From: Minisyncoccota bacterium
Lineage (GTDB): Bacteria; Patescibacteriota; Minisyncoccia; Phycocordibacterales; UBA9973
Reading direction: 5' to 3'
DNA length: 64,000 nucleotides
NCBI GenBank assembly: GCA_017991395.1
Contig: JAGOQQ010000001.1
Location: 33,864-97,863 of the forward strand
Part shown: positions 2,664 to 57,547 of the stretch, one piece after another
How positions within the stretch are numbered: the first letter of the stretch is position 1
Layout: each line of letters opens with the position of its first letter
Notes under the pieces: model-generated
The model's input: only the letters and a program-made list of their open reading frames with translations
What the model was told of the DNA's origin: nothing
Databases searched by the model: none
Translations under genes and position numbers: made by a program

Positions 2664-2742
2664 GCATAAAAACAGCAAGACAAATAGTCAAAACTAAGCG
2701 TCGATATTCTTCCGCGCTAAGTCTGCATAGGTCCGCGTCTAG

Positions 2743-3330: not shown

Positions 3331-3333
3331 TTA

Positions 3334-3765: not shown

Positions 3766-3925
3766 ACACAGTTTATAGGTGATAGGTTATAGAAGATTAA
3801 AACACAAAATCAACCTCATTTCACTATTACCCAACTACTTGCTAATACTACAATTATATCTTCTTTTGGTTTATATGAAAATCAATAAAAAACCTCGCAC
3901 AAGTGCGAGGTTTTCGTTTGTAAGC

Positions 3926-4441: not shown

Positions 4442-4544
4442 GATTATTTGTGCGCAATTACGCCTAACTTATAATTGTGTGTAGTATACCATTTCACATA
4501 TCTTCATGTGAATACTTCATTTTTATCAAAAGCACTCTGGTGAT

Positions 4545-4955: not shown

Positions 4956-4979
4956 AATTTTAATTAGTTAGTATTAAAT

Positions 4980-5237
4980 CTATTCACGAGAAGTCTTTCG
5001 TTTCTTTTTCTTTGCAAAAAGAAAATTGAAAATTGTACTGTCCACGATTCTATCTTTTACTTCACTTATTTCATCTTCTGCTTTTACCATTGCGTGATTT
5101 ATATTTCGGGTTGCATCTCTAAGATTTCTTAAGACAGAAATCAAATAATAAAGTGCAATACTTCCCAATACAAGAAAGACGACCACAGCAATAGTTGTTA
5201 CAAAAAAGAATATATCTGCTTTCATTAATGTATCCAT
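4980..5237 (-). CDS. Small membrane protein (DUF948-like)
   Basis: Likely start is MDTLMKADIFFFVTTIAVVVFLVLGSIALYYL: one TM segment, then a short charged tail. The ORF-track start at 5306 looks like an upstream over-extension. Confidence 0.35.
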   Translation of the reverse strand: MDTLMKADIFFFVTTIAVVVFLVLGSIALYYLISVLRNLRDATRNINHAMVKAEDEISEVKDRIVDSTIFNFLFAKKKKRKTSRE

Positions 5238-5411
5238 ATAAAAATCATTAGCTACTAATACTTTCGTACAACTTCCTCCTTTGGAAATTATATCACAAAA
5301 GACCATGTTGTATTATTTTCGTCAAATACTTATTTACATAGAATTGTATTTAATCTGAATAGGTATATCATATTAAGAGGACATTATAACTTATTAGCAA
5401 TTTCTATTTTT

Positions 5412-6629
5412 ATGTTTACCTATCTAATTTTTGAAATCATTTCCGCCATTATTGGCACAAGTGCTTTAATTATTCTTATTATTCATTTTTATCGCACACG
5501 AACCGCCCGAGACGAAATAAAAAAGAAAACGGTATTCATTCCAATATTGCTCTTCATAATTGCATTTTTAAGTGGACTCATTGCAAACAAAACGTACACA
5601 CCTGATTTTGCAATGCCGGCATTTATGCATTCTCATGCACCAGGTGGACTCGCGCCGTCAATACCATTCGCCAATATCTTAGATTTTTTAATTAACAGAA
5701 ATAAATTTATATCTATTGATGACATCTCAGCAAATCCAAATGATGTACCGACCTCTGCCAATATTCCCGGTCCAGATGGTTTAGTGCACATTGAACTTGT
5801 TGCAAGAGAGGTCATATCGGAAATAGCTCCAGGAATTTATTTCAATTACTGGACATATAACAATCAAGTACCAGGACCAATGCTGCGCGTGCGCGAGGGC
5901 GACACAATACAACTTTCACTAACCAATGACGAAACAAGTCTTCATCATCACAATATAGATCTTCACTCTGTTACTGGACCAGGAGGAGGTGCAAGTCTCA
6001 CACACGTTGCTCCAGGAGAAACAAAAACATTCCAATGGAAAGCACTCAATCCTGGACTTTATATTTACCACTGTGCAATGCCAAATGTGAGCACTCACAA
6101 TTCTCATGGTCAATACGGACTCATAATGGTAGACCCAAAAGACCAATCTGTTGCACTATCTCCTGTTGATAAAGAATTTTATGTAGTTCAAGGTGAGCTC
6201 TACACAGTTGGCCAAATTGGAAAACAAGGATTGGTTCCATTTGATTCGGATGCTCTGCTTGATGGAACGCCGAACTACATCACATTCAATGGAAAAATTG
6301 AAGGGACACCTCGAATGCACGCACAGGTTGGGGATACTATCAGAATGTATGTCGGAAATGGTGGTGTAAATCTTATATCCTCATTCCATGTTATCGGAGA
6401 AATATTTGACAAAGTTTACCCTGAAGCAAACATTGGTGGAACCATTGAAAAGAATGTACAGACCACAGCCGTACTACCAGGAGGAGCGAGTATTGTTGAA
6501 TTCACTGTTGATGTTCCCGGAAAATACCTTTTAGTTGATCATGCGCTGGCTCGAATGAATAAAGGTGCGTGGGCAGTTCTCGAAGTGACTGGTCCTGAAA
6601 ATCCTGAAGTATTCAAAAAAGTTGAATAA
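5412..6629 (+). CDS. nirK: Copper-containing nitrite reductase (NirK, multicopper oxidase family) with an N-terminal membrane anchor
   Basis: Type-1/type-2 Cu ligand motifs: HHHNIDLHSVTGPGGGA, LYIYHCAMPNVSTHNSHGQYGLIMVDP, and a C-terminal cupredoxin domain. N-terminal TM helices are present. Confidence 0.8.
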   Translation: MFTYLIFEIISAIIGTSALIILIIHFYRTRTARDEIKKKTVFIPILLFIIAFLSGLIANKTYTPDFAMPAFMHSHAPGGLAPSIPFANILDFLINRNKFISIDDISANPNDVPTSANIPGPDGLVHIELVAREVISEIAPGIYFNYWTYNNQVPGPMLRVREGDTIQLSLTNDETSLHHHNIDLHSVTGPGGGASLTHVAPGETKTFQWKALNPGLYIYHCAMPNVSTHNSHGQYGLIMVDPKDQSVALSPVDKEFYVVQGELYTVGQIGKQGLVPFDSDALLDGTPNYITFNGKIEGTPRMHAQVGDTIRMYVGNGGVNLISSFHVIGEIFDKVYPEANIGGTIEKNVQTTAVLPGGASIVEFTVDVPGKYLLVDHALARMNKGAWAVLEVTGPENPEVFKKVE

Positions 6630-6631
6630 TA

Positions 6632-6661
6632 AAAAGCGGTTCCATGTGGAACCGCTTTTTT
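6632..6661. terminator. Rho-independent terminator (bidirectional hairpin) after nirK
   Basis: aaaagcggttccatgtggaaccgctttttt: perfect 11-bp stem flanked by A and T runs. Confidence 0.7.
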
Positions 6662-6697
6662 AATTGAACATACCAAGTTTTAATTTTCAATTTTTAC

Positions 6698-7255
6698 TTA
6701 GTGATATCTGAATCTCCAATCAATCGATGGAAATTTGGAAAATCCATGTGACAAAAATGTATCGATGATGTGTGAGAGTAAGACAATTGGTATAAGAGAG
6801 AACAGTGATCTTGTGAGCGTCCATTCAATTTGCGGATAAAGTAATTGTCCTAGACTATAGCCGGAAATACACGGCACCAACACACCTGTGATCATATCGT
6901 ACAGACATATCACCAGAAATCCTTGAAAAAAATATTTACCGGTTGATTTCAGGTATTTGTCAGAATCTTTCACCTTCGTGATACATGAAGCGCCCACGGT
7001 GAGTATGGCCATGAGAGCACTTCTAAACAAATCATATTCGAAATTATACTCCCACTCTTTATGCATAAGTGAGTAAATAAATCCGTATATCATTATTGAA
7101 ATGAATACATACAGAAATCCGGCGATTTTGCTATGCCTGGATATCGGCAACCCCACACCTTGGAGCAAGGTCACATTTGAGATGGCAGTCAGTAATTTGA
7201 ATAGATACGTGAGACCTATGCCGACAATTGTCGTACTAATTAATCGATTTTTCAT
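6698..7255 (-). CDS. Hypothetical polytopic membrane protein
   Basis: 185-aa ORF with 5-6 predicted TM segments. No recognised motif. Confidence 0.45.
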   Translation of the reverse strand: MKNRLISTTIVGIGLTYLFKLLTAISNVTLLQGVGLPISRHSKIAGFLYVFISIMIYGFIYSLMHKEWEYNFEYDLFRSALMAILTVGASCITKVKDSDKYLKSTGKYFFQGFLVICLYDMITGVLVPCISGYSLGQLLYPQIEWTLTRSLFSLIPIVLLSHIIDTFLSHGFSKFPSIDWRFRYH

Positions 7256-7865: not shown

Positions 7866-8246
7866 GAGGGCATTGATTCGAGATTCCATTGGTGGGTGTG
7901 TCATCCCAAAATGAAATGTGTCATCGAATGCACGACAATTTCATCCGGGACGAGAAGTGGTATTTTTAAGACTTATCTTTTGTATTAAGCAACGCATGTA
8001 TTCGAGATTCCATTGGTGGGTGTGTCATCCCATATGAAAATTGTCCAAAAAAATAATACAGACAATTTCATACGGGACAAGAAGTGGTATTTTTAAGATT
8101 TATCTTTTATGTTAAGTAATGCGTTTATTCTTGATTGCATCGGGGGGTGTGTCATAAAAAGTTGTGCCATTTTTGATGTCTTCCCTTTTGGATCAGCGAG
8201 ATACAGATGTGCAATTGCGGTTGATTGTTTTTTCATTGGCGCGCTA
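7866..8246. repeat. Tandem repeat, ~125-bp unit x3. The proximal copy is the real 3' end of htpX; two degenerate copies lie downstream
   Basis: Copies start near 7870, 7994 and 8121 (attcgagattccattggtgggtgtgtcatccc ...). Each distal copy still encodes MTHPPMESRIHALLNTKDKS*, versus the genuine MTHPPMQSRINALLNIKDKS*. Confidence 0.8.
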
Positions 8247-18218: not shown

Positions 18219-18275
18219 ATATGGTAGTTAGTAGATAGTAGTAAGTGCGTAAATAGTGTGCCTAGAAAATCAAAT

Positions 18276-21452: not shown

Positions 21453-22241
21453 TTAGTAGAGTTTTTCTCCGAGCGTAAATGGATCAATGATTGGAAGTAT
21501 TTCAAGCGTCTGAGCATTTTTTCCAAATGGGTACAACCATGAAAAATTGACTTTGACTTCGGTCTGCTTTGGCAATCCGTCGACAATTGTTCTTGAAACT
21601 CCGATTGCATTGTCGAGCTGATCATACACTACAGCAATCACGGGGAATTTCCCTACATCAATAAATGATTCGTTGCGTAGTGTTGCGTATGCTTTTGGAA
21701 CTGTCTCGAGTGAGCCGAGTCCTTTGTCGGATTCTACAACACGCGCTTCTTTATAAATAGCTGATGTTTTCCAAAAGATCGGCTGTTTGGTAAATTCAAA
21801 ACGTGTGATTTTTGGTATTCTATTTCCGCCAGTTGAAAGTGCTTCTTCAAAAATGACTGTGTGTCCGTTTGGTAAAATTGATGCCATGCCTTCCCTTTGA
21901 GTAATCACGACATTTCTCTCATCATAAAGTTTAAATTGATATGGCACGGATTTGACCGCTGCATCCACATTTTGATTTTCAATATACGCCGCAACATGAT
22001 ACACACCTGGTGCTACTTCAAACGCACGCGCCCATACGACAATGAGCTCACGCGTGTCTGACATACACATGAGCGAACAGGTTCCGCCACAATCAACTCC
22101 TGTCTCAGCTCCATTTTTTTTGCCGTCTGTACATGTGGCTGGAACAGAAATTCGAGGGTAAATAAGAGCAAACAGCACACCTAGAATTACGAGGAGTACG
22201 AGTGAAAGATATACAAATTGTCGTTTGCCTGCCCAAGTCAT
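21453..22241 (-). CDS. Hypothetical N-anchored protein adjacent to the SEDS gene
   Basis: N-terminal TM, Cys cluster (CTDGKKNGAETGVDCGGTCSLMC). Its stop abuts the SEDS gene. Confidence 0.5.
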   Translation of the reverse strand: MTWAGKRQFVYLSLVLLVILGVLFALIYPRISVPATCTDGKKNGAETGVDCGGTCSLMCMSDTRELIVVWARAFEVAPGVYHVAAYIENQNVDAAVKSVPYQFKLYDERNVVITQREGMASILPNGHTVIFEEALSTGGNRIPKITRFEFTKQPIFWKTSAIYKEARVVESDKGLGSLETVPKAYATLRNESFIDVGKFPVIAVVYDQLDNAIGVSRTIVDGLPKQTEVKVNFSWLYPFGKNAQTLEILPIIDPFTLGEKLY

Positions 22242-22243
22242 AA

Positions 22244-22285
22244 GAGTAGTTAGTAGTTAGTAGTTAGTAGTTAGTAGTTAGTAGA
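22244..22285. repeat. Heptanucleotide microsatellite (AGTTAGT/CTACTAA)x~6 immediately upstream of the 21453..22241 start codon
   Basis: agtagttagtagttagtagttagtagttagtagttagtag. In mRNA sense, (ctactaa)n ctactcttATG. Confidence 0.8.
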
Positions 22286-22478
22286 AAATACAAAATGCAT
22301 TTCCTAAATACTAGAAACTAACAACTATAAACTAATGTAAATTATAACATTAAAAAACCCTAGCACTAATAGTACTAGGGTAATCTTAAAGAAATATTTT
22401 AAATTCTTAAATACACTTCTGCTGAGAATGTTCGCGTTAAGTCTGCGTTAGTTCGCGAATACAAAAATCGAACACTTG

Positions 22479-22805: not shown

Positions 22806-22895
22806 TGATCTCGACGGGATTCAAACCCGCGACCTCAGAACCAGCTCCTGGCAATCTACTGGTGCTACGCTCTAATCAGACTGAGCTACGAGACC
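22806..22895 (-). tRNA. tRNA-like gene between 23S and 5S with canonical acceptor, D and T arms but no canonical anticodon arm; about 14 nt extra. Possibly intron-containing or a pseudo-tRNA
   Basis: RC reads GGTCTCG TA GCTC AGTCTGATTA GAGC ... GCGGG TTTGAAT CCCGT CGAGATC A. No 5/7/5 stem-loop can be found between the D and T arms. The only local pairing there is ACCAG/CTGGT around a 14-nt loop. Confidence 0.45.
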
Positions 22896-23575
22896 GTACT
22901 CAGGAAACGGGCGATATGGACGGTGTCCTACGACCTGATATGTTGACCTGCTCAACTCGATCTAGTCTATACCCTTTTGTATTCCATCGTTAAATGGGCC
23001 TACTTAAGTCTGAGGGATACCCCCAATAATCCGTACTCGAACAGCTTCATACTGTTGCGCAACCAGCATTAGTGCTGATTCACGGCTATAAGACACGTCA
23101 AGTATGTTGCGTATGCTTGGAAACCAAGTATACATTAACAACACGACAACACTTTTGGTTTTACTTCCATGTTTGGGTTCATTCCATTAGTGACGCTTCC
23201 TGAATGTTTTTAATTTTTGCAAAATGTACTATTTATACTTGAATGCTTAAATAGTTGTTGTCATAATAGTGATTTTCAAAGTTCCTAATAGGAATCGAAA
23301 CATTAGTACGCCTCGGCTGAGTACATTACTGTACGTACACCTAGCGCCTATCGACGTGATCATCTCTCACGCTTCTTAAACGATTCCTAATCTTGAAGGT
23401 GGCTTCCCTCTTAGATGCTTTCAGAGGTTATCCATTCCCGACATAGCTACCCTGCATTGCTTTTGGCAAAACAGCAGGTACACCAGAGGTCAGTTCACCC
23501 CGGTCCTCTCGTACTAGGGGCAAGTCTTCTCAAGAATCAACGCCTGCAGTAGATAGGAGACCAACCTGTCTCACG

Positions 23576-24038
23576 CACCTACTTGCCCCACATAGCTTTT
23601 TGAAAAAAGCGACGTGGGGCCATACTCATATATCGACGAAGAGATATGAGTATGTTTTTCTCGTATTACTACGAGGATTGGACTGTAACTTCATCTCTTT
23701 CAAGATGTTTGACATTCAGTCTCTACGGGTCACAGTCATTATAAAATGACATAGTTCCCTCGGTATTGCCCCATCCGCGATTTTCCGCGTTTAATCCGCG
23801 AACTTCTGCGTTTGTCGGGTTCCACCGATATAAGTCAACTTCTCATACACTATTTCTAATGTATGCCGCCGTGAAATGTACTTACTGTACATTCATGGTC
23901 TTGTCTCTGTAAACATAAGTATTTTTACAAATACTTCCCTCAACGGATTCAAACTGCCCAATGCGTAGAACCTTATTCGTAGAGCGCAGAGCGTCGATCA
24001 AGATGCAATTGCATTTTGAATCAAACGTTTTACGTTCC
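23576..24038 (-). other. ~463-nt insertion in 23S domain V at the GAACGU|CGUGAGACAG junction (E. coli ~2593-2596 region); candidate ORF-less group I intron
   Basis: Exon-like TTAGAACGT (ends in U) lies upstream. The insert ends ...TAGGTG (terminal G) directly before CGTGAGACAGG. There is no ORF >=60 aa on the rRNA strand inside it. Confidence 0.5.
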
Positions 24039-24734
24039 ACGTTCTAAGATCTACGACCTGAACGGTTTGAACCCAGCTCGCGTACCTTTTTAAATGGCGA
24101 ACAGCCATACCCTTGGTAGCTTCTCCACCACCAGGATAAGGTGAGCCGACATCGAGGTGCCGAACTCCGCCGTCGATATGAACTCTTAGGCGGAACTAGC
24201 CTGTTATCCCTAGAGTAGCTTCTATCCGTTAATCTTCGACCGCATCTAATGCGAATCGTCGGTTCACTAGGTTCTGCTTTCGCACCTGCTTGGGATGTAC
24301 CCCTCACAGTCAAGCCAGCTTGTGCCCTTACACTATCGGCACGGTTTCCATTCGCGCCTAGCTGACCTTAATAAACCCCTCCGTTACTCTTTAGGAGGGT
24401 ACCGCCCCAGTAAAACTACCTTCCAGAAACTGTCTCTCTCCGTTTTTGCCGTAGAGATTAGAATATGCCCATTAAAAGAGTGGTATTTCACTGACGAGTA
24501 TTACATCACCGAGATGATGCACATAACCTCTCCCACCTATGCTACGCATTTAATAAACATACTCAATATCAAGATGTAGTAAAGCTTCTAGGGTCTTTTC
24601 GTCTAACTGCAGGTAACCGGCATCTTCACCGGTATTGTATTTTCACCGAGCAGGTCCCCGAGACAGTTTCCCAGTCATTACACCATTCGTGCGCGTCGGA
24701 ACTTACCCGACAAGGTACTTCGCTCTTCTGTACC

Positions 24735-24942
24735 TAAAAGAAGGACTCTATCTTCATCCATTTCATAAAGAAATTAGGATGTATGGCGCTGGTCTCTCGA
24801 TAGCCATATTTGGACTTGCTATGCATTACTGCACAACAAGGTAGCTTTTTGTTTGGTATAACTTCATCACACTTTTGATCAATTGTTTATCTTTTTCTAT
24901 GACGGTCCCAGTCCTTCACTACACTTCAATGAAATGTAGTGA
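24735..24942 (-). other. ~208-nt insertion in the 23S between CCUAAGGU and AGCGAAGUACCUUGUCGGGUAAGUUCCGAC (E. coli ~1931 site)
   Basis: The universally contiguous CCTAAGGT|AGCGAAATTCC is interrupted. The insert contains a hairpin tcactacatttcattgaagtgtagtga. No ORF. Confidence 0.5.
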
Positions 24943-24977
<35 letters not shown>

Positions 24978-25914
24978 CAGGGCTTATATCAGCCAGCTCA
25001 TGTCTTGCGACAATCACCACCGATATTTGACCTTCTGGCATTGGTCAGGTGTCACCCCCTATACATCCTCTTACGAGTTCGCAGGGAGCTGTGTTTTTGA
25101 TAAACAGTTGCCAGGAATACTTTCGCTGCGGCCACGCACATCACGCAGAGCACGATGTGCAAGCTAAAAGTTAAAAAGTTTAAAGCTAAAAGAAGAGAAA
25201 TGCATTTTGTATTTCCTTTCAGCTTTTGACTTTAAGCTTTCAGCTTATTGCCATCACATTCTATGTGATGTGCGCGGCAAGCCTTATCCCAAAGTTACGG
25301 CTGCTTTTTTGCCGAGTTCCTTGGGGACCTCTCACTCGTTCGCCTTGGTCTACTCGACCTGACTACCTGTGTCGGTTTACGGTACGGGTTCTCACATATT
25401 AGAGCTTAGAAGCTTTTCTTGGAAGCGTGCTTTATATCATCCCCATGGGCGTACCCACAGATTTATGCTCTGCTTGCATGTGTCTTGCGACTGCTTCCGG
25501 ATTTTCCTGGAAGCCACACTCACAGCACAAACTCAAATCCATTAATGAGCGATATATACTACACTCCGTCCCTCCATCGCATACGTGAGAAGTTAAGGAA
25601 TATTAACCTTATGTCCATCGGGTGCGGTTTTCACCATTCCCTTAGGCCCGACTAACCCTTGGCTGATTATCATAGCCAAGGAAACCTTAGTCTTTCGGCG
25701 GGAGGGGATCTCACCCTCCTTGCGGTTACTTGTGCCAACATTCTTACTTCTCATCACTCCAGAGTGGGTCACCCCTTCTCCTTCACTGCGGATGAGAACA
25801 CTTGCCTACCACTGCACTTGTCCGAAGACAAATACAATCCTCAAATTCGGTATCACGTTTAGCCCCGATTATTTTCGGCGCGAAATCTCTTGATGAGTGA
25901 GCTGTTACGCTTTC

Positions 25915-25946
<32 letters not shown>

Positions 25947-26530
25947 TCATTGTCAGAGAAATATCACATCCTTGATTTGCACTTAACGTGAATTTAGGGA
26001 CCTTATTTAGAGATCTGGGCTGTTTCCCTTTTGACATATGGAGCTTAGCCCCCATTGTCTAACTGCTAAGTTATGACTCTTGGTATTCGGAGTTTGATAG
26101 ATTTCGCGAGATTGCTCCCTGTCGAGATCTTCCAGTGCTCTACCCCCAAGAGGAACACTTAACGCTAGCCCTAAAGCTATTTCGGCAAGAACCAGCTATT
26201 ACCAGGTTCGATTAGCTTTTCACTCCGACCCACGCGTCATCCGAAAGTATTGAACGGCTTATCGGTTCGGTCCTCCATCTGTCTTTCGACAAACTTCAAC
26301 CTGCACATGGGTAGCTCACCTGGCTTCGGGTCTTATGCATACTACCAATTACGCGCTATTAACACTTGGTTTCCCTGGGGCTCCGTTGCGTAGCAACTTA
26401 GCCGAGCAGCATGCATAAACTCGTTGGCTCATTCTTCAATAGGCACGCCATGACGGAACACGATAAATCGCGTCCGCTCTGACTCCTTGTAAGCATATGG
26501 TTTCAGGTCTATTTCACTGTCCTTCCGGAC

Positions 26531-26571
<41 letters not shown>

Positions 26572-27545
26572 ATTCAAAAATATTTAGCCTTGCCAGTTAG
26601 TTCTGGCAGATTCCTCCAAGCTATTCGTGTCTTAGAGTACTCAAGAGCAGTAACGAAAGAGATATAATTATTTAAGTTACAGGACTATCACCTTCTTTGG
26701 TCGTGCTTTCCAGCACCTTCACATATAATTATATTTTTTGACTCTTCTCGTAAAACGAAGTTACTGTCTTACAACCCCTCACAGTAATATCCGAAGATAT
26801 TTCGTAAGGTTTGGGCTTCTCCGGTTTCGCTCGCCGCTACTCACGGAATTCATATTTGTTTCTTTTCCTCCAGGTACTGAGATGTTTCACTTCCCTGGGT
26901 ATGCATCTACACGTCAAGCGCATAGATTATCTCGAATAACCGAGATAGAGTTTCCTCATTCAGAAATTTCCGGATCAAAGGTTGTTAGGCACCTCCCCGA
27001 AACTTATCGCAGCCACACCACGTCTTTCATCGCTTTTTGAATCCTAGGCATCCACCATATGCTCTTAATTTCCTATTAGGAAATTTAAAAACCACTAAGT
27101 ATAGATATTTCTGCATATATCTATACGACAACATCACCGTACTTCAAACCGCTTCGAAGTACAGTGAACTCTGTTTTCAATACACAAAAAGAAAAGACCC
27201 TTAACTGTGTGTATCGAAACAGGATGAACTTTTCAAACAACCAGCCTTTCTGTCGTGAACTAAAAAACCGCCTGTTGGCGGTAAAAGAAAACCCCAAAGG
27301 ATTAACCTTTACGCCAACGAAGTGATTTTTTATTACTTACCATATCGTGAGAAAGAGTATATATGAAAGCAAAACCAAAGTCAAGTGATTTTTGCCTTGC
27401 AGAACAAGGCTTTTTCCCCTATTCCATACAAGCCTTATATTGCTTAATTTTAAAGGGAAAATGAGATTTTTTTGGGTTAAATTTTTTGATTATTTTTAGG
27501 TATTTTTATAGCTTTTTCCATCTTTAGAATTTTATTTTTCTTATC

Positions 27546-27655
27546 AATCCCCCGCATCTGAAACACGCATAAAATTCTGGTGAATTTTTGCTATACTCGC
27601 GCCTTCGCGCTCCGTAATGTTTCAGATGCGGGGGATTCTGTATTCAGGAATACAA
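27546..27655. ncRNA. Structured intergenic element, copy B (see 2553-2663): perfect 18-bp outer stem, conserved core, trailing small hairpin
   Basis: Outer stem atcccccgcatctgaaac / gtttcagatgcgggggat. The core differs from copy A at only 2 positions. It is followed by tgtattc-ag-gaataca. Confidence 0.4.
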
Positions 27656-31265: not shown

Positions 31266-31466
31266 TACTCTACTCCTACTTTTCTGTATTGTAAAGATTT
31301 TAGAATAGAATCATGCATACAAAAAATACCCTCAAACTGAGGGTATTTTTTGTATTTTTATTTAATGTGAGGTTGTTATTTCAATTCAACCTGTCACACA
31401 TAAATTCCTGCTGGAATTTTGCGCGACCCCGCCTCGACGCCGTCGCGTCTCCGGCTCAAATTTGAG

Positions 31467-31856
31467 CTATTTAAGCTCAACTTTGCCTCCTGCTTCTTCG
31501 ATCTTCTTCTTCAAATCTTCAGCCTCTGCTTTCTTCATTCCATCCTTAAGTGTTGCTGGTGCTGCGTCTACGAGGTCCTTTGCTTCCTTAAGTCCGAGTC
31601 CGAGAACTTCTTTAACAACTTTCATAACACCAATTTTCGCTTCACCTGCTGATGAGAGAACAACTGTAAATGAATCTTTTTCTTCTGCTGCTTCACCACC
31701 TGCTGCTGGTCCTGCAACTGCAACAGCTGCTGCTGATACACCAAATTTTTCTTCGAGAACCTTTACGAGCTCGTGGAGCTCAATTACTGACATAGTGTCA
31801 ATTTTCTCAACAAGGTCTTTAAACTTTGCTGGAACTTCAAATGTTTTTTCTTCCAT
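31467..31856 (-). CDS. rplL: 50S ribosomal protein L7/L12
   Basis: MEEKTFEV...[18 protein letters not shown], Ala/Gly/Glu hinge, and C-terminal domain [19 protein letters not shown]...[10 protein letters not shown]. Confidence 0.9.
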
Positions 31857-31932
31857 ATTGTTTTTGCTTCTAGCTACTAGCATCTTGCTACTAGCTTAAT
31901 AATAAATTAAATAATGTGATTCGATGCGAAAG

Positions 31933-32433
31933 CTAGTTGCTAGTCGCTGTCTTTTTTTCAGCAATTGCTTGTGTAACCACAGCAAGGCGCTGAATTGGTG
32001 AATTGATGAGATTCACAAATTGTGCAATGAGAGTCTCACGTGAAGGAATAGTTGCGATAGTCATCATTTCACTTGCGTTCATGTACTTTCCGTCAAATAC
32101 TCCACCAACGATACTCACTGTATCCTTGTGTGTTTTGTGGAATGCATACACGCCGCGAGCTGGAGCAATCAAATCTTCTCCAAATGCAATCGCGATTTCT
32201 CCCGGCAATTCTGGTAGTTCACCTGTGTACCCTTTTTCAGACAATACTCGCTTCAAAAGAGTTTTCTTTGTGACTTTATATCCTGACTTTTCTGCACGTA
32301 GTGCGCGTCTAAGCTCAGTTGTTTCAGACACTGGGAGCTTTTTGAATTGTACGAATACGATTGATTTTGCTCCATCGACAAGTCCTGCAAATTCTTTTAC
32401 GAGACTAGTCTTTTTTTGTTTTGTAAGTGCCAT
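31933..32433 (-). CDS. rplJ: 50S ribosomal protein L10
   Basis: MALTKQKKTSLVKEF...TTELRRALRAEKSGYKVTKKTLLKRV; located upstream of rplL. Confidence 0.9.
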   Translation of the reverse strand: MALTKQKKTSLVKEFAGLVDGAKSIVFVQFKKLPVSETTELRRALRAEKSGYKVTKKTLLKRVLSEKGYTGELPELPGEIAIAFGEDLIAPARGVYAFHKTHKDTVSIVGGVFDGKYMNASEMMTIATIPSRETLIAQFVNLINSPIQRLAVVTQAIAEKKTATSN

Positions 32434-32632
32434 ATGTATAAGTGATAAGGGATTAGTGATAAGCAAATAGGGATTCTTTTATACCCTAAACCCTTTTCAC
32501 TATTCCCTAAAATTAAAAATCGACCTGTGACGGCCGACATAGAATTACGCGTTGTATACCAAAAGGATACTCGCGTGCCTCGACGGGAAATTAAGTGATT
32601 TCACACCCGTGGTCTCTGGCCTCACGGGTTTG
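32434..32632 (-). promoter_or_regulatory. Long structured rplJ 5' leader (candidate L10(L12) autoregulatory leader). Its last ~85 nt belong to the 5'-UTR hairpin family also found before rplE and rplX
   Basis: ~200-nt untranslated leader with GC-rich hairpins (cccgtgaggccagagaccacggg). The start-proximal part is ...agggaatagtgaaaaggg...aatccctatttgcttatcactaatcccttatcacttatacatATG. Confidence 0.4.
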
Positions 32633-32662
32633 ATAGTACCACATTACAAAGCGAAGAGTCAA
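32633..32662 (-). promoter_or_regulatory. Candidate promoter for rplJ-rplL
   Basis: Minus-strand TTGACT - 18 nt - TACTAT. Confidence 0.4.
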
Positions 32663-32836: not shown

Positions 32837-34072
32837 TTAATTCAAAATAGTAAATTGCACACTCGCACCATCTTCTGAAGGCACCGCATACAGTGATGTT
32901 TCTGAGAAAAAAGTCACCACGCCATCTTCTGACACATCTTCCTTTACAAATTCACCTGTCAAAAAATTCCACTGACGAATCGTCGAGCGAAGTGGCTTAC
33001 CTGACACGTCCGAAAGCCACACATTTTTTTCATTCACATTAAAACCAAGTGGAGTCTCTTTGACCATATCAACATCCGGCGGATTCTGAAGTGTCAGTGG
33101 GGTCATTTTTTCTCCAAGATAATTGTAGGGAGTAACGGTGTTTTGAGAATACACGAATACATTTCGAGAAAACACATCAATCAACACTTCAGATACCGAT
33201 ACATTTTTATGAAGTGTCACCGCAGTGTCATTTTTTACATTGAGAATATAATCGCTTCGTCCATCATCAAAACCTCCTGAGACGAGTACTGATTCATCCC
33301 CAAGCGAAACGGCATCAAAAAATCTTCCGCGAGAAACAGATGTGTATTCTTTGATAGATTTAGTGACAGTGTCCACGCGTGCCACAAATTGCCTTTCGCC
33401 TGCTCCCTCACCCAAATCAGTTCCATCGCTTTTGAATATCAATAAATCTGTTGGTACCTTAAGCCACACTGCTGGAGTGTCGAATGTGTCATCAGTAAGA
33501 ATACTTGAGTTGCGACTTTCAACAGAATACACGAAGACACCTCCTTCGTTTGTATTTTTGTATGCAACAAAAAGACTATCTGGTGAAATAACTGGGTGTG
33601 ATCCAAAAGACGATACTACATTTAGTGCATCATCCTTAAGATTGTATATGTACACACCATCAGAAGAAAAAACGACAAAATTGTTTGACCATGAAGGCTT
33701 GCCGACCAGCGATCCATCGTATATTTTTTTCATCACACCTTTTGAAATATCAACAAGTACTACATACGAGCCTTTTTCGAGTTGTCCTTCAACAGGATTT
33801 GACTCACCTTGAAATAATGCAAAACGACTATCAGGCGAGAAGTACACAGAACCTGCCACTTTATCGACACCAATACCAAAAGTTGAAATATCGCCTGAGA
33901 GACGGCTTAGTGCGTCACTTGTGGGTACAAATACACCATTCTCCTCTTGGTGTTCTTCCGACAAAGGTCTTTCGGCTATGTCTGGTGAACTTTGAAGAAA
34001 TAGTGCAGAAATAATACCCGCAACCATAAGTATGATAACAAAAAACACTATTTTTCCTTTTTGAGTAAGCAT
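32837..34072 (-). CDS. Anchored beta-propeller protein with PD40/TolB-like repeats
   Basis: N-terminal TM, then repeated ...SPD(S/G)... blades (FSPDSRFALF, ISPDSLFVAY, VFSSDG). Confidence 0.5.
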   Translation of the reverse strand: MLTQKGKIVFFVIILMVAGIISALFLQSSPDIAERPLSEEHQEENGVFVPTSDALSRLSGDISTFGIGVDKVAGSVYFSPDSRFALFQGESNPVEGQLEKGSYVVLVDISKGVMKKIYDGSLVGKPSWSNNFVVFSSDGVYIYNLKDDALNVVSSFGSHPVISPDSLFVAYKNTNEGGVFVYSVESRNSSILTDDTFDTPAVWLKVPTDLLIFKSDGTDLGEGAGERQFVARVDTVTKSIKEYTSVSRGRFFDAVSLGDESVLVSGGFDDGRSDYILNVKNDTAVTLHKNVSVSEVLIDVFSRNVFVYSQNTVTPYNYLGEKMTPLTLQNPPDVDMVKETPLGFNVNEKNVWLSDVSGKPLRSTIRQWNFLTGEFVKEDVSEDGVVTFFSETSLYAVPSEDGASVQFTILN

Positions 34073-34106
34073 ATCGTAGAGTAATTATATCACACAGGCC
34101 GAGTCG

Positions 34107-35222
34107 TTATTTTGTAGGATTTTTGACCGCAATTTTGTCGATGCAATCAAATGTCTTATTTGTCATCGTTGCAAGTAAAAATCTTTCTTCTACTTTTTTA
34201 CGCGATTCTTTTCCTTGTTCAAATATAAGAAGTGGATTTGTGGCATACAGTGTAAATGTGTCTGCAAGTGATTGCTCTTCGTTCTCTTGTGAAAGCAGCA
34301 CGCCATTTTTTGCATCTACCATCTCACTGATTCCTCCAACATTACTTGAGATTATCGAAAGTCCCCGCGCCATGGATTCGAGAATTGCCATCGGAAACCC
34401 TTCCCAGTGTGAAGTGAACACCAAAATATCTTTTGAAAGAAGCGTGTTCTCTACCGCCTCCCTATCAATTCTCCCCACAAACTCTGTCTCAACAAATGGC
34501 ATGAGAAGTGTCGCCATTTGTTCTGCACGCATCTTGTACGATCCATCGCCAATAAACGTCATCTCAAATTTTTTCTGCAATTCTTCGCTCAGTCGTGAAA
34601 GTGCGCGAATGATAATAAATGGATTTTTGGGTGCGTCCATTTTTCCGACAAACACAAGTCTAATTTTTTCTGAAAGTTTTCTTTCCACAAGTGGCGGTAG
34701 TGCGACGCCGTTGTAAATTGTCACAACCTTGTGTGAAAAAAATGGAAGATAGCGAACAACTGTTTTTCTATCATTTTCTGACACGGCGATCATTTGCTTT
34801 GAAATCAAACCTGTCAGACCTTCAGCAATAATACTTACCACTTTTCTCCAAAATGGTGTACCGTCAGTAAAACTCACGCCATGAAATGTGTGAATTGAAG
34901 GTGCAAGCCCCACACTTCCCCATCTACCTACGATTCCGCCTGCAAAGCTATGAGTCGACACAACATCTGGTTGAAATTGCTTCACTATTTCTCTCACATC
35001 AAAAATCGCCTCAAGTTGTGTGATTGGGTTTAGTGTATTTGAAAAGAAAGGTGAGAAAACCACTTGCACGTATTGACCTTGAACATTTTTTGAAAGCCAG
35101 CCTTCCTTGTCGGTCATAAGGAGTACATGATCTCCTCTTCGTGCGTGTGCATGAATGAGGTCAGAGACAACACTCTGCGCTCCGCCCTCTTCACCCTTTG
35201 TGATTACATACAGAATTTTCAT
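34107..35222 (-). CDS. Glycosyltransferase family 1 (GT4)
   Basis: MKILYVITKGEEGGAQ N-terminal domain, and the C-terminal EGFPMAILESMARGLSIISSNVGGISEMV motif typical of GT4. Confidence 0.8.
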   Translation of the reverse strand: MKILYVITKGEEGGAQSVVSDLIHAHARRGDHVLLMTDKEGWLSKNVQGQYVQVVFSPFFSNTLNPITQLEAIFDVREIVKQFQPDVVSTHSFAGGIVGRWGSVGLAPSIHTFHGVSFTDGTPFWRKVVSIIAEGLTGLISKQMIAVSENDRKTVVRYLPFFSHKVVTIYNGVALPPLVERKLSEKIRLVFVGKMDAPKNPFIIIRALSRLSEELQKKFEMTFIGDGSYKMRAEQMATLLMPFVETEFVGRIDREAVENTLLSKDILVFTSHWEGFPMAILESMARGLSIISSNVGGISEMVDAKNGVLLSQENEEQSLADTFTLYATNPLLIFEQGKESRKKVEERFLLATMTNKTFDCIDKIAVKNPTK

Positions 35223-35308
35223 ATACCCATAATACCACGCAGAAGATTGGATGGGGAAAATAAAAAAACCCGCAGGTGCGGGCTGTCACTCTTTAACACT
35301 TTTCCATT

Positions 35309-36046
35309 TTATGCCTTTTCGAGAAATTCTAATCTTGCTTCCTTATTTGGTCCATTATTAAACATAGTAACCAAAAGTACTTTTACTTTCATGATTTTGT
35401 TTGCTTTATAGTAACCAATCCAACTGGCATCATGCTTTTCAGATGCAAATTCTGTAAAAATATCGCGCACGATATCTTGCACTATGCATGCATTACCAGT
35501 AGTATGACCGAGGTTTTGATACAAAAGCATATCATTAACACTCTGAAGCAATTTAAGTTTGTCTTCCTTGTGTTCCGTCACAAAATTGTTCTGAATAACA
35601 TTTTTAAATAGAGTATAAAATACTCCGTAAAGGCGATTTGATTTCTCTGTTAATTCAATTTTAATAGCTGGGTGTTCACTTTCAAAAGACTCAACAAGAG
35701 ACCAAACTGACCCAGGATTACTTACTACCTTTTCCATTCGATCTAGCAAATAACACGTGAGCATCGAGCAATAGATATTTTCTGATTCCTTTGCTAATAA
35801 TTTAGTTGTTCTGACTACATTAGAGTGGACGTAAAACACAGCAAGACTTGCAATAAAAAATACAATTGCAAAATTTTCAGAGTCAGACATGGCAAATAAC
35901 ATACTGGCCGAAATAAGTGTTACCATCGCAATAATAAAAACAATATTGATGATATTATGAAGAGATGCAAGAATCGAGGGTTTATTACTTTCTTTCATAT
36001 ACCCAGAGAATTCGTAACCTGTTGGTTGGTTTGTTCCAATATCCAT
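35309..36046 (-). CDS. Hypothetical membrane protein
   Basis: Two N-terminal TM helices followed by a soluble domain. No recognised motif. Confidence 0.45.
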   Translation of the reverse strand: MDIGTNQPTGYEFSGYMKESNKPSILASLHNIINIVFIIAMVTLISASMLFAMSDSENFAIVFFIASLAVFYVHSNVVRTTKLLAKESENIYCSMLTCYLLDRMEKVVSNPGSVWSLVESFESEHPAIKIELTEKSNRLYGVFYTLFKNVIQNNFVTEHKEDKLKLLQSVNDMLLYQNLGHTTGNACIVQDIVRDIFTEFASEKHDASWIGYYKANKIMKVKVLLVTMFNNGPNKEARLEFLEKA

Positions 36047-36070
36047 TTTTTCAGTTTTTTAGGAGTTTTC

Positions 36071-36102
36071 TTCAGACTATACTTTTGAGGCGAAATGTCA
36101 AC
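36071..36102 (-). promoter_or_regulatory. Repeated promoter-like motif, copy 1 (upstream of 35309..36046)
   Basis: Minus-strand gTTGACAtttcgcctcaaaagTATAGTctgaa. Nearly identical to 36405-36436. Confidence 0.35.
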
Positions 36103-36150
36103 TTATTATATTTTCAAATAAAAAAGCTGGTGCGAACCAGCTTTGGTGAC

Positions 36151-36390
36151 TTACCTTTCATCTTGAATTTCTTGAGCCAATAATTTTACATGATACAACA
36201 CATTCATTCCTGCAAGCACAAGAAATGCGGGGACACAAATCAGTACAAAAACCAGCATTTGATTTGTCCCACTATCATCAAGTAACATCATTAAAATGAC
36301 AAAAATTATTTGAATAAAAAAATGATAGATATTAAATCTAATTTGCTTGTAGTTGCTTCTGTCCTGAATCTTTGTTGTCTTGTTTTCCAT
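36151..36390 (-). CDS. Small 2-TM membrane protein
   Basis: 79-aa ORF preceded by the same promoter-like motif. Confidence 0.4.
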   Translation of the reverse strand: MENKTTKIQDRSNYKQIRFNIYHFFIQIIFVILMMLLDDSGTNQMLVFVLICVPAFLVLAGMNVLYHVKLLAQEIQDER

Positions 36391-36404
36391 TGTGCAGTTT
36401 TTTA

Positions 36405-36436
36405 TTCAGACTATACTTTTGAGGGAAAATGTCAAC
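36405..36436 (-). promoter_or_regulatory. Repeated promoter-like motif, copy 2 (upstream of 36151..36390)
   Basis: Minus-strand gTTGACAttttccctcaaaagTATAGTctgaa. Confidence 0.35.
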
Positions 36437-36477
36437 AAAGTTAAGCGTAAAGCGTGGAACGTAGAACGTTGACCATT

Positions 36478-36524
36478 CAAATTACAAAAGAGCGGCGCCG
36501 TAGGCGCCGCTCTTTTGTAATTTG
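36478..36524. terminator. Long palindromic terminator (22-bp stem) after rplE; near-identical to the one after fusA
   Basis: caaattacaaaagagcggcgcc gta ggcgccgctcttttgtaatttg, with a T-tract on the mRNA side. Confidence 0.65.
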
Positions 36525-36629
36525 AGATTCTGAAACAAGTTCAGAATGACACAATGCAAATTCAGAGTGAAAATTGCAGATTTGATTTCTTCTGCGCCTA
36601 GTCAGCGTTAAGTCCGCGACTGTCAGCGT

Positions 36630-37169
36630 CTACTTCTTGAACGGCACCCCCACGAGTTCAAAGAATTTTGTTGCTTCTGCTTTTGTTTTTGCAGTTGATA
36701 CAAGTGTGATCGCAAGACCAAACACATCCTTGATTTCTTCGTCTGCAGTTTCAGGGAAAATAGTGTGTTCCTTGATACCGATAGTTGCATTTCCGATATT
36801 GTCTACAATTTTTCGATCAATACCACGGAAGTCTTTTGTTCGAGGAAGAGAGATGTTCAAAAGCTTTTCAAGAAACGCGTACATTCGTGCTCCACGAAGT
36901 GTCACCATGACACCTACAGGATCACCTTGTCGAATCTTAAATGATGCCATTGATTGCTTTGCACCCTTGAGTGATGGCTTTTGACCTGTGATCTTGGTGA
37001 TACGATTAATGACGAGCTCGTTGCGCTTTATGTCACGCTTCATACCAGAACCTGTTCCGACTGACACCACGACTTTTACAAGCTTTGGTGAGGCCATTTT
37101 GTTCTTGTATCCAAACTCAGCTTTCATCACGTCGTATGCATTTTGTGATTTTTCTTTTACTGATTTCAT
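36630..37169 (-). CDS. rplE: 50S ribosomal protein L5
   Basis: Canonical L5 sequence (MKSVKEK...YDVMKAEFGYKN...NISLPRTKDFRGI...). Confidence 0.9.
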   Translation of the reverse strand: MKSVKEKSQNAYDVMKAEFGYKNKMASPKLVKVVVSVGTGSGMKRDIKRNELVINRITKITGQKPSLKGAKQSMASFKIRQGDPVGVMVTLRGARMYAFLEKLLNISLPRTKDFRGIDRKIVDNIGNATIGIKEHTIFPETADEEIKDVFGLAITLVSTAKTKAEATKFFELVGVPFKK

Positions 37170-37253
37170 AAATTTAGTGATAAGGGATTAGTGAGAAGCG
37201 AATAGGGATTTTTACTTCTATTCCCTGTTCCCTTTTCACTAGTCCCTGTCTAT
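37170..37253 (-). promoter_or_regulatory. 5'-UTR hairpin element preceding rplE (family shared with rplJ and rplX)
   Basis: mRNA sense: ...agggactagtgaaaagggaacagggaatagaagtaaaaatccctattcgcttctcactaatcccttatcactaaatttATG. The arms agtgaaaaggg / cccttatcact are complementary. Confidence 0.4.
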
Positions 37254-37559
37254 TTATATTTTCGCTCCACTCTTTCGAGCAATACGAATCTTTTTTCCGT
37301 CTTCGACCTTGTATCCTACTCGAGTTCGCTTTCCTCCTTTTGGATCAATCATCATCACATTTGAAACATGCATTGGCATTGCTACTTCAACTGTTTGACC
37401 TTTTTCACCACGTCGCTTTGGCTTTTGGTGTTTTTTGTGAAGATTGAGACCTTCGATAATCACCTTATCAAGATCGCGAAGTGTCTTGACGACAGTTCCT
37501 TTCTTGCCCTTGTCGCGTCCAGTAGTCACTATTACATTGTCTCCTTTTTTGATTTTCAT
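37254..37559 (-). CDS. rplX: 50S ribosomal protein L24
   Basis: MKIKKGDNVIVTTGRDKGKKGTVVKT... KOW motif. Confidence 0.9.
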   Translation of the reverse strand: MKIKKGDNVIVTTGRDKGKKGTVVKTLRDLDKVIIEGLNLHKKHQKPKRRGEKGQTVEVAMPMHVSNVMMIDPKGGKRTRVGYKVEDGKKIRIARKSGAKI

Positions 37560-37654
37560 AAATTTAGTAAGTAGTAAGTAATTAGTAGGAAATAGTTAGA
37601 TGCTTTCGGTTTTGAATCCCTACTAACTACTTACTACTAATTACTTACTTGATT
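37560..37654 (-). promoter_or_regulatory. Large imperfect hairpin between rplN and rplX built from TACTAA/TAGTAAG-type repeats
   Basis: Plus strand: agtaagtagtaagtaattagtagg ... cctactaactacttactactaattacttact. The 3' arm ends ...cttactaaatttATG(rplX). Confidence 0.4.
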
Positions 37655-38026
37655 TTAAAGTACCTCCGGTGCAAGCGAGACTATCTTTTGATAACCTTTT
37701 TCCTGAAGTTCTCGAGGAATTGGACCGAAAATACGACCTCCTTTTGGATCAAGCTTTCCTTTTTCAAGGATAACAACTGCGTTTTCATCAAAACGAATGT
37801 ATGATCCGTCTTTTCGACGAAATGCCTTCTTTTGACGAACAACAACTGCTTGGTGAACATCCTTCTTCTTCACCGCTTTTCGTGGTTGTGCAACTTTGAC
37901 AGAGATAATAACTTTATCTCCAAGCTGTGCGTATCGCTTTTTTGAGCCTCCAAGAATCTTGAAAACCTTTCCGACGGTACCACCACTGTTGTCTACTATT
38001 TTTACTACTGTTTCTGTTTGAATCAT
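37655..38026 (-). CDS. rplN: 50S ribosomal protein L14
   Basis: MIQTETVVKIVDNSGG... Confidence 0.9.
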   Translation of the reverse strand: MIQTETVVKIVDNSGGTVGKVFKILGGSKKRYAQLGDKVIISVKVAQPRKAVKKKDVHQAVVVRQKKAFRRKDGSYIRFDENAVVILEKGKLDPKGGRIFGPIPRELQEKGYQKIVSLAPEVL

Positions 38027-40383: not shown

Positions 40384-40421
40384 ATAGCAAATAAAATAGC
40401 CCTTTAGGAGCTAGTCCACAT

Positions 40422-40450
40422 ATCTTAGCAAATGGAAATAATGCTGTCAA
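40422..40450 (-). promoter_or_regulatory. Internal sigma70-like promoter directly upstream of rpsS
   Basis: Minus strand TTGACA - 17 nt - TAAGAT. Confidence 0.5.
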
Positions 40451-40546
40451 ATACATATCGCGGACTTGACGCTGACTACCACGGAATGACTCGTGAGCTC
40501 TGGCCAGCAACACGAACACGCATCACAAGTACGGAGACTCGGGCAA

Positions 40547-40570
40547 CAAAAAACCTCCCTTTTGGGAGGT
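40547..40570. terminator. Terminator hairpin after the inserted small ORFs
   Basis: aaaaacctcccttttgggaggtt. Confidence 0.55.
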
Positions 40571-40579
40571 TGTAGACAG

Positions 40580-40819
40580 TCACAATTTGCCATAAACATA
40601 TTTCTTTACCTTTGACTCAATCAGGAAATCAACCAAAAAAAATGGGGCTCCTAAAACTGGAGACAAGAAACAGCACATAACGTAGAAACAAAAAAATGTA
40701 AACAGATTCTGACTTAACAGAAAAAGTGTCACGCAAAAAAGTAGTGCTAGCACAATTCTCGCAGTCATTTGAATAGTATTTTTCCTGTTTCGAACTGGAT
40801 ACCATTTTGAAACAAACAT
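40580..40819 (-). CDS. Small membrane protein inserted between rplB and rpsS
   Basis: 79-aa ORF with two TM segments. Confidence 0.35.
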   Translation of the reverse strand: MFVSKWYPVRNRKNTIQMTARIVLALLFCVTLFLLSQNLFTFFCFYVMCCFLSPVLGAPFFLVDFLIESKVKKYVYGKL

Positions 40820-40833
40820 TCTGTATAGACGAT

Positions 40834-41088
40834 CTACTTTGGCAAACTTATTTGAAAATTCCTTTTTTCTTCTGCACTCATTCTTTTCACTTCATGAAAA
40901 CTTCGAGGCGAAAATTCAATTCCATACTTATAGAAAAATCTTATTTTTGAATGTGTATTTGGCCCTTCAGGGCAATCACTTTCGAATTCAAGGATGAGAT
41001 TTTTTAATTTTTGACGTACTTCATCTCGTATCATGGTATATGATTTTTTGTTTATTTGAATCCTACACCAAATGGATTGTTTGAGCAA
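40834..41088 (-). CDS. Small hypothetical protein inserted between rplB and rpsS
   Basis: 84-aa basic ORF. Confidence 0.35.
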   Translation of the reverse strand: MLKQSIWCRIQINKKSYTMIRDEVRQKLKNLILEFESDCPEGPNTHSKIRFFYKYGIEFSPRSFHEVKRMSAEEKRNFQISLPK

Positions 41089-41090
41089 TC

Positions 41091-41120
41091 AAAAAGCGAC
41101 GGCCATGGCCGTCGCTTTTT
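41091..41120. terminator. Terminator-like hairpin immediately after rplB
   Basis: aaaaagcgacggccatggccgtcgcttttt. Confidence 0.55.
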
Positions 41121-41151
41121 GATTGCATATTTTGAAATAGTACAAATTGTA

Positions 41152-43628: not shown

Positions 43629-43726
43629 AATAGTAATAACTAAAGCAATAAGGCTTAAGGCCAAAGCTTGATTAAATTTCTTTTTATTAAAGCTTCGGCC
43701 TTTGGCCTTACAACTTCAATGTGTGA

Positions 43727-53269: not shown

Positions 53270-53356
53270 AATATAAATAAAATAGCCATGAAATGACTAG
53301 TCCACACACTGTACTATACTGGCCCAAAAAACGCAAGGGTCCGAATGACACAAAGG

Positions 53357-57514: not shown

Positions 57515-57547
57515 ATATTTAAATTATATCACAGTACTTGAAGTGGA

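Follow-up and report, generated by a model that had tools for sequence, protein, structure and literature searches.

Heptad-repeat stem-loops at ribosomal protein gene starts in a Minisyncoccota bacterium behave as repeat cassettes and not as gene-specific operators

In a 64-kb stretch of the genome of a Minisyncoccota bacterium (contig JAGOQQ010000001.1; the whole stretch is hereafter called the window), the start codons of the ribosomal protein (r-protein) genes rplJ, rplE and rplX are each preceded by one long stem-loop. Here we show that these hairpins act as repeat cassettes, some sites keeping one sequence and others being swapped between near-identical strains, and that they are not gene-specific operators. 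The regularity that defines them is a 7-nt periodicity, which the initial annotation of the three sites had missed. We propose, with a probability of about one half, that they represent a lineage-specific class of transcribed heptad-repeat stem-loops, whose effects on the mRNA would be generic and not specific to the gene that follows.

The initial annotation had placed a hairpin 5' untranslated region (UTR) at each of the three sites, and folding bears this out for all of them: each stretch forms one long hairpin with a z-score of -4.4 to -8.9 against 200 dinucleotide shuffles, none of which (0/200) was as stable (Table 1). The first stretch, 32434-32520, comprises the 87 nt directly 5' of the rplJ ATG (32433), its hairpin lying between an L10 leader and rplJ with a 14-nt G-free tail (32434-32447) that reaches the ATG. 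The other two are entire intercistronic spacers. That between rplX and rplE (37170-37253, 84 nt) is filled by a hairpin that starts 3 nt past the rplX stop codon and leaves a 9-nt tail to the rplE ATG (37169), and that between rplN and rplX (37560-37654, 95 nt) by a hairpin with arms (TAGTAAG)n and (CTTACTA)n, which starts 5 nt past the rplN stop codon and leaves a 13-nt tail to the rplX ATG (37559). The sequence blocks said to be common to the three are common to rplJ and rplE: a 35-nt pattern with two free positions matches exactly two places, the rplJ and rplE copies, where 0.00 matches are expected, and CCCTTTTCACTA likewise recurs. No such similarity extends to the rplX copy save for its last 12 nt, ACTAAATTTATGAAA, the only sequence that it has in common with rplE. 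The initial description of a 3' arm reaching the ATG was imprecise too, as pairing ends 9-14 nt short of it and a G-free tail of A, U and C continues to the start codon. On the gene strand, neither promoters nor terminators are predicted within the hairpins, and the hairpins are identical across the NCBI, ENA and Logan assemblies.

All hairpin arms are built of 7-nt units in tandem. Within arms, identity at lags of 7 and 14 nt is 0.44-0.71 as compared with ~0.27-0.30 at other lags, and the lag-7 signal is significant by shuffling in each of five mRNA hairpins (p<0.0005), among them the rplJ hairpin (0.57) and a further hairpin between rpsJ and rplC, where it is weaker (0.44); in 23 control spacers the mean lag-7 identity is 0.29 and the maximum 0.37. 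Tandem Repeats Finder (TRF) returns nine period-7 rows in the window, seven of them within hairpins, reporting arrays of period 7 and 14 in both arms of the rplE hairpin, period 7 in both arms of the rplX hairpin and 5.7 copies of period 7 with 100% matches in a hairpin at 22254-22334. A strict lag-7 scan finds 4 segments as opposed to 0.2 in shuffled sequence, whereas lags 5, 6, 8, 9 and 10 give 0-1. Typical units are TAGTAAG/CTTACTA, TAGTGAA/(T)ATCACTA and CTAACTA, with GCCTAAA and others also present; most hold stop triplets, TAG, TAA and TGA being frequent in the arrays. C is nearly absent from the 5' arm in this clade (G/A/U), and G from the 3' arm (C/A/U).

Further copies, which had been overlooked, lie at the rpsJ-rplC junction, at 22242-22340 and in the 23S rRNA. 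A covariance model made from an alignment of eight sequences of the rplE, rplJ and rplX types scores rplE at 99.9 and rplJ at 75.5 bits, both of these copies being in its own alignment, and more weakly rplX (32.3 bits), rpsJ-rplC (24.8 bits) and 22246-22332 (23.1 bits). The rpsJ-rplC hairpin fills the spacer 43629-43726, starting 6 nt past the stop codon and leaving a 10-nt tail to the rplC ATG (43628; start taken from the L001 gene call and the Pfam L3 match). The hairpin at 22254-22334 constitutes nearly all of the predicted 5' UTR (22242-22340) of a hypothetical gene (21453-22241) that matches no Pfam family; its 3' arm is (CTAACTA)5, its tail is 12 nt long, and TATAAT just upstream (22341-22346) is a putative promoter. 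A half-element, with lag-7 and lag-14 identities of 0.49 and 0.52, precedes secF (SecF by Pfam); it has no inverted partner and is unstructured (-0.5 kcal/mol). Sequence-related copies number two in the 64 kb, and a further 15 kb of the same contig held no more copies of the hairpins and none related in sequence. One lookalike, at 3766-3862, was dropped (z = 0.18).

The copy within the 23S rRNA (25161-25246; lag-7 identity 0.62, p<0.0005) lies in an insertion of 122 nt that, in an alignment to the large-subunit rRNA model, takes the place of a loop measuring 2 nt in the bacterial consensus (model positions ~1751-1774), and it has an 18-nt apical stretch in common, inverted, with the hairpin at 22242. 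A second heptad-periodic hairpin in the 23S rRNA, 23944-24075, lies just 5' of a group I intron. As heptad hairpins occur inside 23S rRNA, a start codon is no requirement for membership in the class. Of the five significant mRNA hairpins, four precede r-protein genes (4/19 against 1/55 of the other genes, Fisher p = 0.014), and of the three readings that the initial annotation had offered, an intergenic repeat family with a preference for r-protein spacers is the best supported.

Long spacers are kept at the same junctions in relatives, by which we mean contigs with L24 homologues at 84-91% identity; a metagenome scan added no relative above 62% L24 identity. In four relatives the hairpin of the rplX-rplE spacer has 85-98% identity, as against 77% in L171, where it is 9 nt shorter; that of rpsJ-rplC has 95% (L171, L175), and in both hairpins the differences lie mostly in the loop. 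In an alignment of the family 90.6% of cells pair and five base pairs change on both sides, shuffle and slid-partner controls giving lower values; where only one side changes, it is mostly from G-C to G-U. We count this covariation, and the stronger sense fold of the rplJ copy of L011, in support of the view that the hairpins are probably transcribed and folded as RNA. Comparison of sense and antisense folding was rejected as a test for selection on the RNA since it gave no consistent bias, rplE folding better in antisense and the rplJ copy of L011 better in sense (-18.8 against -8.7).

Whereas these two sites keep one sequence, others do not. The rplN-rplX spacer is only 22-49% identical among the relatives, and where L24 identity is 84% or more it is occupied by six or more mutually unrelated alleles, of which two are weakly structured. 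L001 and L002 have identical L24 proteins and flanks of ~100% identity (50-nt windows) around a hairpin of 40-52% identity, the divergent tract extending from ~10 nt before the rplN stop codon to ~4 nt before the rplX ATG. At rplJ, L175 and L177 are 34% identical in the hairpin and ~98% in its flanks, and in L175 the hairpin has been replaced while the L10 leader is conserved. The alleles of L175 are weak (-9.2 and -6.5 kcal/mol), and some alleles lack heptads. Alleles also reassort among strains, since allele b is 98% identical in L002 and L183 though their L24 proteins differ by 11%. They occur at more than one junction as well: the b-type family is found at rplN-rplX in L002 and L183 and at rplX-rplE in L181, and the rplE-type family at rplN-rplX in L171, L011 and L012. 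Further out, hairpins are absent from a relative whose L24 is 70% identical, its spacers measuring 5 and 16 nt, and hairpin-free short spacers at 63-70% L24 identity bear no recognisable footprint.

The statement of the initial annotation that the genes lack a Shine-Dalgarno (SD) sequence is borne out and holds well beyond these genes, as GGAG, GAGG or AGGA occurs at -20 to -4 in only 2/52 ATG-started genes, compared with 10% of random 17-mers of the gene strand. G is depleted before starts (2-15% at -16 to -1), and no SD-like motif lies upstream of rpsL, fusA, nirK and the called tuf start. The hairpin-bearing genes have a fixed layout, namely a stop codon or leader end, 0-6 nt, the hairpin (~61-82 nt), a tail of 9-14 nt that is free of G and rich in A/U, and the AUG, such that the paired part ends 9-14 nt and the heptad array 0-6 nt before the ATG. 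The mean unpaired probability of the -13 to +13 region, from the partition function of -120 to +60, is 0.57 in hairpin genes and 0.54 +/- 0.13 in the other 47. Owing to this equal predicted accessibility, the hairpins neither hide nor obviously expose the AUG, and both occlusion and enhancement of the start site were rejected. Folding of a hairpin would leave ~12-19 nt between the previous stop codon and the AUG that follows, a distance within the 4-30 nt found at junctions of the cluster that have no hairpin. Elsewhere in this SD-less genome TATAAT-like boxes stand only 6-9 nt before an ATG (57515-57547, 34073-34106 and 35223-35308), a spacing that suggests leaderless or near-leaderless mRNAs.

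Were the hairpins translational operators for r-protein autoregulation, as had been suggested, they would be autogenous sites at which L10/L12, L5, L24 or S8 represses rplJ, rplE and rplX. Their position at r-protein cistron starts, their enrichment there and the good conservation of the rplE copy speak for this, and in E. coli the S8 operator is indeed located at the rplE start. The reading fails because the L10 leader is a separate element, the sites turn over, the class extends beyond r-protein genes and the start sites are open. The canonical L10 leader is distinct from the rplJ hairpin; it lies directly upstream of the hairpin, with a terminator-like stem (32538-32519) and U-run and a promoter-like site (32662-32633). 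Its score of 42.8 bits (E 1.2e-5), obtained with permissive thresholds, is below the gathering score of 44, so that it is a near-threshold member of RF00557 and a separate neighbour. The rplJ hairpin begins where the match ends, is matched only by the unstructured 3' tail of the model and is not a member. The leader is ~95% conserved in L011 (85% L24 identity).

Operators would also be expected to be conserved with their genes, and at rplN-rplX and rplJ, where copies are swapped among near-identical strains, hairpin identity is 22-52% between flanks of 98-100%, while the rplE and rpsJ-rplC copies are conserved. Similarly, they would be expected in r-protein mRNAs only, and copies are found at the hypothetical gene and in 23S rRNA, with a half-element at secF. 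Comparison with the r-protein leader families of Rfam gave no match for the hairpins; at both gathering and E-value thresholds their only matches, far below threshold, were to generic hairpin models of the miRNA-precursor type. In addition, rpsH is absent from the operon, which stops at a terminator after rplE, and the start region is not occluded. We consider the operator reading largely refuted and hardly tenable.

The 23S rRNA of the window (23284-27078, minus strand) is 3795 nt long, as compared with a 2925-nt model, and holds its group I intron at 23659-23922; together with the labels of the top L24 homologues (Paceibacterota, Parcubacteria or Patescibacteria) this fits a bacterium of the candidate phyla radiation (CPR). 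Beyond its close relatives we compared 160 loci from genome and metagenome scans. In several unrelated Patescibacteria, hairpins of unrelated sequence fill entire spacers of the r-protein clusters and end 0-15 nt before the ATG. In L137 (Ga0209541_10027816, 838-6900) almost every r-protein junction carries a 70-125-nt hairpin and the hairpins form multi-copy families, several near-identical copies reaching the ATG. Heptad periodicity is likewise present in L092, L089, one L137 copy, L166, L181 and L012, but not in L109 and L165. Two generalisations were tried and rejected: no junction is preferred across CPR, expansions occurring at many different junctions depending on the lineage, and the rule that the G-free arm stands beside the start holds in this clade, whereas other CPR lineages show the reversed polarity. 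Firmicute loci from the same scans have few spacer hairpins, mostly weak. Viral contigs contain no copy of the rplE-type core; (CTAACTA)4 arrays do occur in 14 of them, which is uninformative.

The literature that we searched holds no description of such hairpins in CPR. Their closest published relative is the TAACTGA heptamer, which forms direct repeats in marine Beggiatoaceae, some Cyanobacteria and Bacteroidetes, immediately 5' of start codons that mostly lack an SD, including in r-protein operons and there before L3; these repeats, which have been proposed to act in translation, are predicted to be unstructured, with one inverted case (MacGregor 2015, PMC4679880). The elements described here resemble them in being forward tandem 7-nt units that carry stop codons near starts, mostly in place of an SD and in r-protein operons, again including before L3, and the secF half-element has exactly their layout. 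Unlike them, the units here are CTAACTA, CTTACTA, ATCACTA, GCCTAAA and others, the arrays are inverted into hairpins of -25 to -38 kcal/mol, only the secF half-element being unstructured, and the elements reside in CPR, occur also in rRNA and are swapped as cassettes.

Other known systems are more distant. REP/BIME, ERIC, Correia, RUP/BOX and SMAG elements are dispersed, imperfect intergenic palindromes that are co-transcribed and form RNA hairpins with effects on mRNA stability and processing; they usually lie 3' of genes or between convergent genes in many near-identical copies, REP being associated with the RAYT transposase. The present hairpins are likewise dispersed, co-transcribed intergenic palindromes that would fold as RNA, but they have few copies, many unrelated sequences and a heptad periodicity, and stand strictly just 5' of starts. 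Intervening sequences (IVS) of 23S rRNA are sporadic, hypervariable stem-loop insertions of ~100 nt at helix tips that are excised by RNase III. The rRNA copy alone resembles them, as a heptad hairpin within an insertion that replaces the 2-nt loop of a helix tip; the hairpins of the window also occur in mRNA spacers. Rfam L10_leader (RF00557) also sits in the rplJ 5' UTR, but the rplJ hairpin is downstream of the match, outside the model, and is replaced in L175 while the leader is kept. Finally, cyanobacterial short tandemly repeated repetitive (STRR) sequences are heptanucleotide tandem repeats. Long simple-sequence repeats with 7-nt units have also been described (Mrazek 2007, summarised in PMC4679880). 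Both are non-coding heptanucleotide tandem repeats thought to grow by polymerase slippage; they are direct arrays, not known to have a fixed relation to starts or to be organised as inverted, hairpin-forming arrays.

How would a generic class of this kind arise and act? We suggest that the hairpins originate and turn over by heptamer slippage combined with inverted duplication or with short-tract recombination, and that they persist where an extruded hairpin is harmless. A folded hairpin would leave the stop codon of the previous cistron only the distance given above from the next AUG, and the initiation region would be as open as in the other genes of an organism without SD. Any effect on expression would then be a general one, conceivably insulation of the start region, protection of an mRNA end or provision of a double-stranded processing site, and not r-protein feedback. 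Several points weigh against this interpretation. The census covers ~79 kb of one genome, the window and the additional 15 kb. The rplE and rpsJ-rplC hairpins are more conserved than the third codon positions of the flanking genes (64-82% identity among relatives), which points to selection on the sequence or to the recent spread of an allele by recombination. Orientation is uniform among the copies of this clade, whose G-free arm always adjoins the AUG, and this uniformity and the r-protein enrichment (p = 0.014) fit a cis-acting role in translation. Among relatives with at least 84% L24 identity there are no empty sites, sites being replaced instead of lost, and no donor copies of the swapped alleles were found in the ~1.5 Mb of DNA compared. 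Conservation of the two hairpins, uniform polarity and the lack of empty sites together keep a cis-acting role alive.

Such a role could be that of a leader for SD-independent initiation or re-initiation, in which the ribosome or an S1-/Csp-like factor would land on the G-free array and the hairpin would bring the stop codon near the AUG, terminating ribosomes opening it and re-initiating. A genome without SD, the fixed geometry (hairpin foot 3-6 nt past the stop codon, G-free tail of 9-14 nt), the consistent orientation in the clade, the partnerless direct array before secF and the conservation of the rplE and rpsJ-rplC copies above the synonymous rate all agree with it, as do the published TAACTGA repeats at start codons with their proposed translational role (PMC4679880). 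We nonetheless find it somewhat unlikely, as only 5 of ~74 genes have the hairpin, the same element sits in 23S rRNA, some alleles are weak or without heptads (L175), the copies at rplJ and 22242 have no upstream open reading frame (ORF) for coupling, predicted accessibility of the start is unchanged, and in other CPR lineages it can be the G-rich arm that adjoins the start. An extension of this thought, speculative and unlikely in our estimate, is that the hairpins are exchangeable cis-acting cassettes that replace the SD region in some CPR, supplying a G-free pad at the AUG and holding the stop codon close for termination-reinitiation, and that the hairpin-limited recombination by which they are swapped also seeds rRNA helix tips.

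The stems, of 22-32 bp, could instead be cut by an RNase III-type enzyme or cap mRNA ends, separating or protecting cistrons in parallel to the intervening sequences of 23S rRNA. They are long and nearly perfect (20-32 predicted pairs), lie within operons with no promoter or terminator signal inside, and in the case of the 22242 copy begin at a predicted transcript 5' end; moreover, a like hairpin forms the insertion at a 23S helix tip, the classic position of intervening sequences excised by RNase III. Weak alleles at the same sites and overall similar fold energies of sense and antisense strands make this improbable. As for mobile elements without their own transposase, of the REP type or miniature inverted-repeat transposable elements (MITE), these would be mobilised by a transposase encoded elsewhere and target the gap before starts. 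Related copies do occur at different sites (rplJ and rplE, the rplE-type and b-type families), replacement is confined to the hairpin, and other CPR loci such as L137 have multi-copy hairpin families. We regard this explanation as distinctly unlikely all the same, since neither a target-site duplication at the element borders nor an empty site is recognisable, no transposase was found in about half of the window ORFs (Pfam) or among the Pfam-marked genes of L001, L185 and L187, no donor copies were found, and slippage explains heptad arrays more easily.

Table 1. Coordinates of the hairpins and of neighbouring features in the window
Feature	Coordinates	Strand	Description
rplJ hairpin	32448-32508	minus	fold -24.8 kcal/mol, z -4.4
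rplE hairpin	37179-37250	minus	fold -28.8 kcal/mol, z -5.1
rplX hairpin	37573-37649	minus	fold -33.2 kcal/mol, z -8.9
rpsJ-rplC hairpin	43639-43720	minus	fold -38.2 kcal/mol, z -6.9
Hypothetical-gene hairpin	22254-22334	minus	fold -26.4 kcal/mol, z -5.1
secF half-element	18219-18246	minus	direct array CTTACTA CTATCTA CTAACTA adjoining the secF ATG (18218)
23S rRNA hairpin	25161-25246	minus	in 122-nt helix-tip insertion, period-7 arrays (TRF) in both arms
L10 (rplJ) leader	32503-32637	minus	Rfam RF00557, full-length match 1-138
rplL	31467-31883	minus	Pfam
rplJ	31933-32433	minus	Pfam
rplE	36630-37169	minus	Pfam
rplX	37254-37559	minus	Pfam
rplN	37655-38026	minus	Pfam

Nearly all genes of the window lie on the minus strand, those listed in Table 1 being identified by Pfam. 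The layout of the r-protein operon is unusual (36477-36525, 40384-41151, 32837-36390): a perfect 23-bp terminator closes the spc cluster behind rplE, rplB is set apart from rpsS by terminators, a promoter and small ORFs, and the interval from rplE to rplJ holds glycosyltransferase and unknown genes; L179, at 70% L24 identity, has the usual order rplE-rpsN-rpsH. The non-coding DNA after rplE (36440-36472 and 36590-36629) contains short-period arrays (AACGTTC TACGTTC CACGCTT TACGCTT and ACGCTGA..ACGCTGA modules), which CGCnGAC modules at 22420-22460 and 2700-2742 resemble. Downstream of the rplE terminator a duplicated 37-nt block (36066-36102 and 36400-36436, 92% identical) holds TTGACA-17-TATAGT, each copy preceding a small or unknown gene. 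On the minus strand rpsS and rpsL have a common short leader, GTGGACTAG, a small hairpin and GCTATTTTATTT..AT-ATG (40384-40425 and 53270-53310), right after promoter-like sites.

Other repeats and structured regions were noted. At 7876-8155, flanked by an M48 peptidase gene and a small ORF, stand 2.2 tandem copies of a 127-nt unit (82% matches), each unit being a long hairpin (ccacttcttgtcccgtatgaaattgtc...). An element of ~60 nt, ACGGAGCGCGAnGGCGCGAGTATAGCAAAAATTCAGCAGAATTTTATGCGTG, with two small hairpins, has three copies on the minus strand (2548-2634, 27541-27627 and ~31400-31460) just 3' of genes that include rplL, two of them 87% identical, and is a candidate sRNA or 3'-end element. At 22806-22895 (minus strand) a 90-nt match to the Rfam tRNA model (42.7 bits), which ARAGORN does not call, adjoins the 5S rRNA and may be a tRNA with an insertion. 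Just beyond the window on the same contig (L187, 17109-17382) lies a strongly structured intergenic region of 274 nt (-81.8 kcal/mol).

The lineage does possess a true L10 leader, and spacers such as those described here should not be annotated as r-protein leaders. CPR bacteria have small genomes and reduced ribosomes, in the present case without SD, and for the choice of start codons and the balance of r-proteins in them the hairpins offer a concrete and countable class of sequence, diagnosed by fixed geometry relative to the start codon and a 7-nt periodicity, in which allele swaps in near-identical strains are natural experiments. The hairpins thereby link heptamer repeats before starts, intergenic palindromes and helix-tip insertions of rRNA, which had earlier been described apart.

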